Shown piece by piece: positions 56,926 through 59,483 of a stretch of 64,000 nt of DNA. Both the position numbers and the translations under genes were made by a program. The DNA comes from an uncultured Trueperaceae bacterium (GTDB lineage Bacteria; Deinococcota; Deinococci; Deinococcales; Trueperaceae): contig CAWFFU010000011.1 in assembly GCA_963815215.1 (NCBI GenBank), forward strand, positions 352,001-416,000, given 5' to 3'. Under the pieces are notes generated by a model, which did no database searches, was not told where the DNA came from, and worked only from the letters and a program-made list of their open reading frames with translations. The first letter of the stretch is position 1. Every line of letters starts with the position of its first letter.

Positions 56926-57002
56926 GGGTCGTTAGCTCAATTTGGCAGAGCAGCTGACTCTTAATCAGCGGGTTATAGGTTCGAGTCCTATACGACCCAC
57001 CA
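56926..57002 (+). tRNA. tRNA-Lys(CTT)
   Basis: GGGTCGT…ACGACCC-ACCA, anticodon arm GCTGA-CT CTT AA-TCAGC, GTTCGAGTC T-loop. Confidence 0.97.
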
Positions 57003-57093
57003 ACGGAAGAGCCGTGAGGGACAAGCGACCGAAGGTCGCGACCCTCGCGGCTCGTTTCATCGTTGCGCGCTCGGCACCTTGGCTGACACCTCA
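56960..57093 (+). repeat. att-like direct repeat, copy 1 (tRNA-Lys 3' half plus ~90 bp)
   Basis: Aligns without gaps to 59350-59483; 16 mismatches in 134 nt by hand count. Confidence 0.92.
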
Positions 57094-57406
57094 GCGCTGC
57101 ACTCCGTGCCGTCACGAACCCGAAGACCTCAAGGCGCCATCTCCCTGGGCCGACGCGGGCCACCGGAACGGGTCTCGTGGGGAGGTATTGCGAGGATGAC
57201 ATCTGGCGGTCGCAAGGCGGTAGCCCACGTGGCGAACGCCTGCGTCTTGCCCACGACGCTACCGAACCACAAGCACAGGAATGCCCACGAAAGGGGAGCA
57301 TCCAGTACCGCTCTCGGCTTGGCGTGTCGCCAGAGGGATGCCTGCGCGCTCCGCCTCGTTGGTGGGTTAGAGTGCGAACCGAACACACGTTTCGAAAGGG
57401 GTTGCG

Positions 57407-58609
57407 ATGCGTCGAGGTCGCGTTGTTGTTCTGTCAGCACTTGCCTTGGGTCTGGTGGTGGTGTTGGCTGCCTGCAATTCCACGCCTTCGGTGGGGAACC
57501 TGAAGATTGCGGTTGGTGGCTTGCCGAGCGGGGTGAATGCCGCGGTGAAGGTCACCAGTGGTAGCTACTCGAAGACTGTGATGGCCACCACCACGCTGTC
57601 CGGGCTGGTGCCTGGGACCTACAACATCGCACCGCAAGCTGTCACCTTGCGCCGCAACGCCTTCGACGGCACCGCGTCCAAGGCAACCGTGACGGTTTCG
57701 GCGGGCGGCATCGCCAGCGACTCGGTGAGTTACGCCGTGCAGCCCGGTAACCTGTGGCTCGCGAACGATACTGGCGGCTCGGTGGTGGAGTACCTAGCGG
57801 CCTCGCTCTCCAGCACCCCTACGACCGGCACGTCGATCACCGGGCTGAGTGGACCGGCGAACGTCGCTTTCGACGCCAGCGGCAACATGTGGGTCGTCGC
57901 TAGCAATGGTGGCTCGGTGGTGGAGTACCTGGCGGCGTCGCTGTCCGGCACCCCTCAAACGGGTACCAGCATCACCGGGCTCAACACTCCGTACGGCATC
58001 GCGTTCGATCATGGCGGCAACCTGTGGATCGGAAGCATCATCGGCGGCTCGGTGACGGAGTACGTGGCTTCGTCGCTGTCCGGTTCGCCCACGACGGGCA
58101 CCACCATCTCCGGTCTCGCCCATCCCTATGGCATCGCCTTCGATAGCAACGGCAACCTGTGGGTCGCGAGCAGCGCCTCAGGAACCGCCGGTGCCGGTTC
58201 GGTGGAGGAGTACACGGCCTCGTCGCTGTCCGGCACGCCCACGACGGGCACCACGATCAGCGGCCTAGACTTCCCAGTGGACGTCACGTTCGACGGTAGC
58301 GGCAACGCATGGGTCTCGCTGGTCAACTCGACCGCTGGTGCCGGTACGGTGGTCGAGTACAAAGCCTCGTCGCTATCCGGCACGCCCACGATCGGAACCA
58401 CCATCACGGGGCTCTCCGAACCCATCGGTGTGGCGTTCGATAGCAGTGGGAACCTGTGGGTGCCGGACTTGTCGGCCAATACGGTTACGGAGTACCTGGC
58501 TTCGTCGCTGTCCGGCACGCCCACGACGGGCACGTCGATTACCGGTCTGAGTAGCCCGGCCGGCGTGGCGTTCGATCCGCCGCCGTACAACCTGCCGCTG
58601 TCGCACTGA
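57407..58609 (+). CDS. Lipoprotein with an Ig-like domain and a six-bladed NHL-repeat beta-propeller
   Basis: Lipobox LAA|C; six ~45-50 aa repeats PxGxAFDxxGNLWV…GSVxEYxASSLSGTPTTGTxIxGL. Confidence 0.88.
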   Translation: MRRGRVVVLSALALGLVVVLAACNSTPSVGNLKIAVGGLPSGVNAAVKVTSGSYSKTVMATTTLSGLVPGTYNIAPQAVTLRRNAFDGTASKATVTVSAGGIASDSVSYAVQPGNLWLANDTGGSVVEYLAASLSSTPTTGTSITGLSGPANVAFDASGNMWVVASNGGSVVEYLAASLSGTPQTGTSITGLNTPYGIAFDHGGNLWIGSIIGGSVTEYVASSLSGSPTTGTTISGLAHPYGIAFDSNGNLWVASSASGTAGAGSVEEYTASSLSGTPTTGTTISGLDFPVDVTFDGSGNAWVSLVNSTAGAGTVVEYKASSLSGTPTIGTTITGLSEPIGVAFDSSGNLWVPDLSANTVTEYLASSLSGTPTTGTSITGLSSPAGVAFDPPPYNLPLSH

Positions 58610-59194
58610 GTCCCAGCTAGGAATCGCTGGCGGCCAGACAAGAACTCAAGTCTGACCGCCAGCCCTTTGTGTCCTGCCCTCGCCCGCCACACATGGACTC
58701 GCTTGGGCATGGTGTTCTTCGGCGCAGCGGCCACGGCGCTGTCCTGTCCAGGCCGACTCGGTCGCTCAGTTTCTGCAATGCGTTGCGAGCGCTGCGGTGT
58801 GCACCACACCTTGGCAGTTGCTTGCGCCTGGACGGCTCGCATGGGATTCGCACGGATCGTGGTTAGGCTCGTCGGGTTGGCAGGGACTTGCCCACTCTCC
58901 CCCAGTTCGGACGAGTCCCCAACCTGGGCGCGCCGGATTGAAGATGCTCCTGTGGAGTGGACAGGTACGAGCCTAGCAACTCACGCCTGAACGCGATCCT
59001 GCCGAACACCGACCCAATCCGGCATCCGGGGTAATAGGAATGGGCCCACAGGAAGCTCATGCACTCGCAGCGCGATCTCAAACGGAGTGCCACGACGCTA
59101 GTGACTCTGGCAGCCCATCACCCGCGGACTACATGCAAACCCAACGAGCGCCATGACGGGAGAACCACGTCCTACACGGCCATCGAAGACCGCC

Positions 59195-59216
59195 TGACAC
59201 CTTGAGTGACACCTTG
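59195..59216 (+). repeat. Paired TGACACCTTG motif (putative integrase arm-type sites)
   Basis: TGACACCTTG-AG-TGACACCTTG with 12-bp period; same motif as at 57072-57093 and 59462-59483. Confidence 0.6.
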
Positions 59217-59349
59217 TCCCGACCCATTCGGCGCGGGTTCGGGCAGCGTGGCGACGATTCCCGCAAGACGACAATCACCGACAATGACGCTGTCGCTCCG
59301 AGTCCCATGTAGTGGCCAATAGTTGGGCCGACCTCTATCCAGGAGGTCA

Positions 59350-59483
59350 CTTGATCAGCGGATTATAGGTTCGAGTCCTATACGACCCACCACCAGAAGA
59401 GCCGCGAGGGACGCGCGATCGAATGTCGCGACCCACGCGGCTCGCTCTTTCGTTGCGCGTTCGACACCTTGGCTGACACCTCA
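59350..59483 (+). repeat. att-like direct repeat, copy 2 (partial tRNA-Lys)
   Basis: cttgatcagcggattataggttcgagtcctatacgacccacca plus hairpin plus gacaccttggctgacacctca. Confidence 0.92.

Follow-up and report, generated by a model that had tools for sequence, protein, structure and literature searches.

A tandem stack of integrase-less, att-bounded units behind tRNA-Lys(CTT) in an uncultured Deinococcota family, probably built by CIME-type accretion

The tRNA-Lys(CTT) gene of an uncultured Deinococcota bacterium (genome G000) is followed by a tandem stack of units that contain no integrase gene and meet at displaced copies of the tRNA 3′ half, with short repeats, mostly paired, at the junctions. 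The stack begins in a 64,000-nt stretch of DNA (the window, G000:C11:352001-416000; positions without a contig name are counted from its first nucleotide). By structure, the units would be CIME-type: they have attL- and attR-like bounds (core and P′ pair on the left, P pair and core on the right), lack integrase and transfer genes, and stand in tandem at the target. We propose, with a probability of roughly two in three, that the locus is a stack of CIMEs produced by repeated site-specific integration, loss of the integrase and later homologous reshuffling. The locus adds a clear case to an established mode of island growth, and is not an integron.

Structure of the tRNA-Lys stack

The GC content falls from ~0.71 to 0.61-0.65 at tRNA-Lys, where an Rfam search found the tRNA alone. 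A first-pass annotation of this DNA had described a recurrence of the tRNA 3′ half exactly 2390 bp downstream, and alignment of 56960-57093 with 59350-59483 confirmed it in full (134 bp, 16 mismatches, no gaps). The similarity continues for 91 bp beyond CCA, through a hairpin that is recovered by folding and a repeat pair of 12-bp period, the first member of which is degenerate (GGCACCT) in the copy next to the tRNA. The third pair that had been reported before the second core is also present, 134 bp ahead of position 59350 (Table 1). The pattern RCACCTT-N3-TGACACC occurs three times in the whole 3.3-Mb genome, always inside the same 2.4 kb, against a genome-wide expectation of ~0.026 calculated from the two heptamer counts. 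The first-pass annotation had proposed a search for further copies of both elements. This revealed a third core 21.6 kb on (G000:C11:432962-433008), giving a stack of three cores, tRNA included, and no GACACC pair beyond the known three in the 3.3-Mb genome. The third junction has the same P-arm spacer ahead of it, retains one of its two P arms and has no P′ pair. One public Logan contig (run X6), which may come from the source sample, covers 59170-59682 with 0 differences. A 59-bp direct repeat (73% identical) on either side of the GNAT gene (59563-59621 and 60518-60576) could be a further recombination anchor.

Table 1. Features of the stack within the window
Feature	Position	Strand	Remarks
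Sigma-70-like promoter match, upstream of tRNA	56879..56908	+	9/12, consensus match only
tRNA-Lys(CTT), putative integration target	56926..57002	+	anticodon loop to CCA (56958-57002) taken as attL core
Hairpin tail, unit 1 left end	57003..57060	+	terminator-like position; fold and alignment
Candidate P′-type arm pair 1	57073..57091	+	12-bp period, 70 bp after CCA, then TCA
Unit 1 cargo, 400-aa NHL/beta-propeller protein	57407..58609	+	N-terminal signal, lipobox-like motif
Inverted repeat just past unit 1 cargo stop codon	58626..58663	+	by eye; missed by terminator scan
segA, conserved 240-bp non-coding right-end module	58957..59194	+	four copies, ~88-91% identical
Candidate P-type arm pair, TGACACCTTG-AG-TGACACCTTG	59195..59216	+	
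Conserved P-arm spacer	59217..59347	+	common to third junction, G019, L225 and partly G008
Displaced tRNA-Lys 3′ half (core 2)	59348..59392	+	3 mismatches/44 nt against tRNA, including G at tRNA position 37
Hairpin tail, unit 2 left end	59393..59455	+	fold
Candidate P′-type arm pair 2	59463..59481	+	then TCA
~60-bp left-end module	59482..59545	+	common to G000 unit 2, G002, G003, G019, L225, L228
GNAT acetyltransferase, first gene of unit 2	59703..60506	+	near-identical in G003 and G019
Hydrophobic protein, unit 2	61035..61760	+	no Pfam/NCBIfam match; 89% DNA match in a different G019 unit
IS21-family element within unit 2	61911..63562	-	IstA; IstB covers only model positions 3-113 of 238

Unit 1 spans 2390 bp and has one convincing ORF, the propeller gene, and no integrase; PF00589 matches are absent from the entire stack, and the earlier description of a unit with a single cargo gene and no integrase stands. 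The product, a putative lipoprotein to judge from its N-terminus, is one of several paralogues in G000. The secreted NHL/propeller family is expanded in this genome, with at least eight further places found by tblastn on C11, C10 and C3, and its genes recur within tRNA stacks, including a 2334-bp single-gene unit of G019 (31% identical). Unit 1 closes with segA, which is present twice in G000 and also in G006 and L225, each time with different cargo upstream; the second G000 copy, at C11:416918, lies 15.7 kb from a P arm. We rejected segA as a coding sequence because codon periodicity is absent and its substitutions are spread over the phases as 14/13/17.

Unit 2 extends over 21,616 bp to the third core and carries the GNAT gene, IS21, an epimerase-like gene, a second propeller, TetR, a sugar-ABC cluster and an M23 fragment. 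The GNAT gene opens this unit, as had been suggested, and the unit it opens is not a small one. Integrase, relaxase and conjugation genes, by which an ICE or IME is recognized, were not found among the scanned ORFs of the stack.

A second integrase-less stack lies behind tRNA-Val(CAC) on another contig of the same genome (G000:C10:994-49649). Its displaced 3′ halves end at 10063, 14691, 26803, 47822 and 49649, with a degenerate one near 5154; GACAGC arm pairs are located at 4973, 10133, 14512 and 26624, and C10:1-90000 gave no match to a tyrosine integrase. Another tRNA-Val(CAC) is found at G000:C14:79366-80473, where 1 kb of upstream DNA matches the beginning of C10 at 97% identity and the tail resembles that of the C10 core at 26803; this copy may be a strain allele or an assembly fork.

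Arm-site geometry of the repeat pairs

The GACACC pairs are very probably arm-type sites, because integrase-bearing islands at tRNA-Lys and at other tRNAs share their geometry. The pairs are directly oriented and placed 70 bp after CCA and ~135 bp before the anticodon loop, a spacing also seen in G071 and in a tRNA-Arg island of G000. In the G071 element at tRNA-Lys(CTT), a TGCTAC pair follows CCA by 69 bp, and directly behind this pair lies the end of a 377-aa integrase gene; the pair appears again ~130 bp ahead of a displaced core on another contig. G148, G141 and G139 repeat this layout at tRNA-Lys(CTT) with other arm motifs. In the G000 tRNA-Arg island, the pair abuts the integrase stop and recurs ~135 bp before attR. 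Many stops in 33 family integrase rows (a few of them duplicates) lie, as judged by eye, within ~30 nt of a pair of 11-12-bp period. Position and period of the GACACC pairs thus agree with the arm-type repeats proposed in the first-pass annotation, and by analogy an integrase would bind them. Since the pairs are very probably arm-type, the segment 59195-59481 can be read as an arm-core-arm junction, which supports the earlier view of it as an attP-like junction between tandem, related, integrase-less elements.

The tRNA-Arg(ACG) island that served as a geometry control (G000:C11:169493-201398, 32 kb) has an intact 415-aa integrase and clear arm pairs, and contains an orphan Val-type P arm at 170199. 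Elsewhere in this genome, the stop codon of a 409-aa integrase gene behind tRNA-Ala(GGC) (G000:C10:327692-329007) overlaps a TGACAGC/TGACATC arm pair, the G000 arm motif closest to those of the Lys and Val stacks.

Identity between the junctions and the tRNA begins in the anticodon loop. A lambda-type att site is defined by an identical 7-bp overlap, whereas the junction loops carry G instead of A at position 37 in seven of nine GACACC-type junctions. Either the crossover occurs just 3′ of this position or the integrase tolerates a mismatch in the overlap, a property reported for IntDOT in the accessible part of its description (PMC2817482). One might speculate that such a mismatch-tolerant integrase acted and that only A37 hosts survived.

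Variation among relatives

Of 364 genomes searched across the phylum, seven have a core followed by a P′ pair, and these seven belong to family f1; a reversed control gave none. The combination was also found in seven metagenome stretches, five of which duplicate G006 or G002. All relevant matches fell within f1, the family of G000. The HMMs for the P arm and the tail had been made with sequences that they later found, so only the G008 match and the absence of matches elsewhere in G000 are informative.

The first-pass annotation had suggested comparing the cargo of related genomes. This cargo varies from relative to relative, and G003, a genome of the same genus, lacks unit 1: its tRNA is joined straight to the GNAT left end, with 98.6% identity over the next 2.4 kb. 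Other cargo follows tRNA-Lys in G002, G006 and G007. In G019, from another genus, six displaced cores on C6 bound units of 3708, 1297, 2784, 5723 and 2334 bp, two of which hold a single gene; counting the tRNA there are seven cores, the join of C6 to the tRNA on C4 being deduced from both contig ends. In L225, a 600-bp block comprising segA, P arm, core and tail is 88.5% identical, with different cargo upstream. No second copy of unit 1 was detected among 128 genomes, and its cargo is matched elsewhere by 65-75% paralogues only, in 6 of 127 other genomes.

The ends of the units are mosaic. The 1.3-kb GNAT unit of G019 is 97.4% identical to G000 and lacks a P arm pair. Divergence is 9-20% in the att ends, against 97-100% identity in the GNAT gene; the lost P pair and the diverged ends around a near-identical gene point to homologous exchange rather than to movement of a complete cassette. 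Between G000 and G003, the first 100 bp contain 13 differences and the following sequence 0-4 per 50 bp, whereas near identity between G000 and G019 starts ~300-400 bp in, and these differing breakpoints again indicate homologous exchange. A ComEC domain was found in all five genomes searched. Core decay increases with distance from the tRNA in G000 (3, 5) and roughly so in G019 (0, 4, 9, 10, 7, 8), but follows no distance trend in G085 (7, 1, 9), G139 (3, 0, 1) or G140 (5, 1).

In read contigs from four runs in two studies, none of the 15 joints listed, out of 30, skips or circularizes unit 1, which is not evidence of absence. In run X1, the GNAT region is covered 3-4 times as deeply as unit 1, and two contigs begin at 59461, which hints weakly at further strains whose left ends differ.

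Further tRNA-Lys(CTT) stacks of 2-4 cores, with the arm families TGCTAC and TGTGCG, are present at L066, L067, L069 and L071 (G085, G140, G106 and G139), and these other arm families mark tRNA-Lys(CTT) as a hotspot used by several integrases throughout the family. In G019, the part of the stack nearest the tRNA (L040:6222-7616 and L058) carries a DNA methylase, an Mrr-type nuclease fragment and frameshifted large genes with an IS21 interruption.

Searches for a cognate integrase

The tyrosine recombinase that the first-pass annotation had proposed to look for was not found in any search. PF00589 has five matches in G000, none near tRNA-Lys, and yielded no cognate integrase in ten relatives; PF07508 had no match in G000, and a search of five genomes with an integrase alignment returned no cognate enzyme. 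The G071 integrase, searched against 128 family genomes, revealed no helper among the best 30 loci, nor did viral contigs, including 80 viral integrase loci; blastn of the junction against plasmids and phages gave no match. An integrase HMM matched none of 13 distinct GACACC-type left ends and was significant only in G071, G139 and G032. Among 37 tRNA-Lys(CTT) loci, a non-random set drawn from match lists in which 27 have at least 1.3 kb downstream, two carry an intact integrase and three a broken or remnant one (G141, G139 and G032), all with other arm motifs. In G019, which is 97% complete, a lambda-type integrase was seen only as a 100-residue piece. CIMEs are defined by deletion from an ICE or IME; no such parent or remnant was found for the GACACC family, and remnants are present for other arm families at tRNA-Lys.

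An unusual 521-aa protein at G000:C11:192489 (L004:1363-2925) has a weak PF00589 match and no NCBIfam match. Several other candidates were discarded. The 60 bp behind the P′ pair are suggestively placed for an integrase C-terminus (TCA/TTA as reverse stop), but the integrase HMM did not match. Loose pattern scans of the genome and viral contigs gave chance matches only, those in viral contigs being unrelated, and a loose arm pattern returned mostly background in 128 genomes, with the G099 match inside a coding gene.

Origin of the stack

According to the accretion explanation, one element family, with a lambda-type tyrosine integrase acting on GACACC arm pairs, would repeatedly enter tRNA-Lys(CTT), with strand exchange inside or just 3′ of the anticodon loop. 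Each newcomer would bring its own version of the tRNA 3′ half, the hairpin and the P′ arms, displacing the older ones downstream. A displaced core with its hairpin and P′ arms would then come to lie behind the P arm of the newcomer, which yields arm-core-arm junctions as seen. Related elements have the end of their integrase gene immediately behind the P′ pair; here that gene would have been lost, and IS insertion, deletion and homologous recombination between conserved ends would have reshuffled cargo within and between lineages. We infer the crossover point, the integrase loss and this order of events from the anatomy. Broken and remnant integrases at 3 of the 37 tRNA-Lys(CTT) loci suggest such decay in progress, and G000 has its own signs of decay in the single P arm of the third junction, the segA copy far from a P arm and the IS21 element in unit 2. 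Against the accretion explanation, none of the 13 GACACC-type left ends retains an integrase remnant, divergence among five left-end lineages sets in exactly where the arm pair stops, the tRNA-proximal unit itself is integrase-less, and the trend in core decay is missing from G085, G139 and G140. In S. salivarius, CIMEs are always the most distal, in a survey that detects CIMEs only beside ICEs or IMEs (PMC7563491, as far as its accessible text goes).

The absence of any remnant would be explained if the units had been integrase-less on arrival, that is, non-autonomous cassettes moved in trans as small circles by a transient helper (phage, plasmid or ICE), each arrival being placed next to the tRNA much as integrons insert new cassettes at attI. 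In favour of this, unit 1 lies beside the tRNA with two properly spaced arm pairs and is missing from G003; one compact right end, segA with a P arm, closes units of differing cargo; the five bounded units of G019 measure only 1.3-5.7 kb, two with a single gene, in a 97%-complete genome where no intact lambda-type integrase was found; and the GNAT unit is shared across genera. However, no helper was found in the family genomes (best 30 loci), viral contigs, plasmids or phages, the cargo of unit 1 is known elsewhere only as paralogues, and the G019 GNAT unit has neither a P arm pair nor ends as conserved as its gene. We regard this origin as possible but doubtful. An elaborated form, rather unlikely in our estimate, is a helper-dependent system with standard ends (hairpin and GACACC arms on one side, segA and P arm on the other), a visiting and possibly mismatch-tolerant tyrosine integrase, and a parallel GACAGC-arm system at tRNA-Val. 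It would, speculatively, build integron-like arrays by a double-stranded, arm-dependent route, with G37 residing in the element core.

The missing helper also fits with junctions that are fossils, in which integrase activity ended long ago and blocks have since spread by natural transformation, anchored in the tRNA and the conserved ends; recombination between the two copies of the 134-bp repeat could then have removed unit 1 from G003. Variable breakpoints, patchwork tails and the presence of ComEC agree with this, and the recurrent G37 could have been inherited as one block, but the origin of many distinct junction families is left unexplained and the arm pairs keep a fixed spacing across diverged tails. 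We consider this improbable as a separate account; it largely coincides with a late phase of the accretion explanation. It is very improbable that the tRNA end was simply duplicated in place, or that the locus is a genuine integron or CALIN array. A direct repeat is present, but it starts at the anticodon loop, behind a P arm that is absent upstream of the tRNA, and it recurs with different cargo in other genomes. GNAT, glyoxalase and DinB are cargo types that we take to be reminiscent of integron cassettes. Yet the 'integron-like array' of the first-pass annotation was not borne out: IntI (TIGR02249) was above cut-off in none of five genomes, in a search without a positive control, as 14 control genomes were also below; 59101-59600 has one RYYYAAC and one GTTRRRY per strand, 183 bp apart on the + strand and unpaired in the fold, and thus no attC box pair; and units of 1.3-21.6 kb with genes on both strands are not the mostly single, co-oriented genes of a cassette array.

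Relation to known systems

A literature search that covered few subscription papers found no description of the G000 tRNA-Lys locus, and the comparisons below draw on the accessible portions of the papers cited. Like integrons and CALINs, the stack is an accessory-gene array split by related recombination sites, with the newest unit probably at one end and no integrase nearby, but those arrays use palindromic attC sites, whereas here we find a tRNA core with arms, no IntI, and multi-gene units in both orientations (PMC4889954). If mobilization in trans were true, integron-like arrays would have a second route of origin with another mechanism; the arm and core sequences, now mapped, make this directly testable once an integrase is found. 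The attP sites of mycobacteriophages (Cluster K, Giles and L5) likewise have arm repeat pairs of 11-12 bp flanking a tRNA-derived core, directly oriented in Giles and L5 as here, and CrimD shares the stem-loop between core and right arms (PMC3203893); unlike them, the present junction is chromosomal and its integrase is missing.

At the level of whole islands, Dehalococcoides also has several tandem islands behind one RNA gene, ssrA, with discordant histories of cargo and ends, and 15 of its islands are without an integration module; those islands use a serine recombinase and a 20-bp repeat, in contrast to the tyrosine-type arm geometry here, for which no module-bearing member was found (PMC3146451). 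The tRNA islands of Islander are marked in the same manner by a regenerated tRNA and a displaced 3′ fragment, often at anticodon-centred sites, and 125 tandems of at least two and 4 of at least three are listed (PMC4383910). Because Islander requires an integrase per island, stacks like the one described here would be filtered out. The closest parallel is with streptococci, where CIMEs of 1.2-13 kb stand in tandem at the att sites of ICEs and IMEs (PMC7563491, PMC5704250), including, according to a citation in PMC7563491, 215 in S. agalactiae at tRNA-Lys(CTT). Both systems have att-bounded, integrase-less cargo units of kilobase size in tandem, chimeric attI junctions and the same tRNA isoacceptor; the present stack differs in having no autonomous member, an integrase-less proximal unit and several units of one att family, and in its phylum. 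Near-identical cargo across genera shows that these tRNA flanks are active points of accessory-gene exchange. The locus widens the range of CIME-type accretion to include an uncultured Deinococcota family, in a clean form: whole stacks without an integrase, of the kind that integrase-requiring island finders discard.
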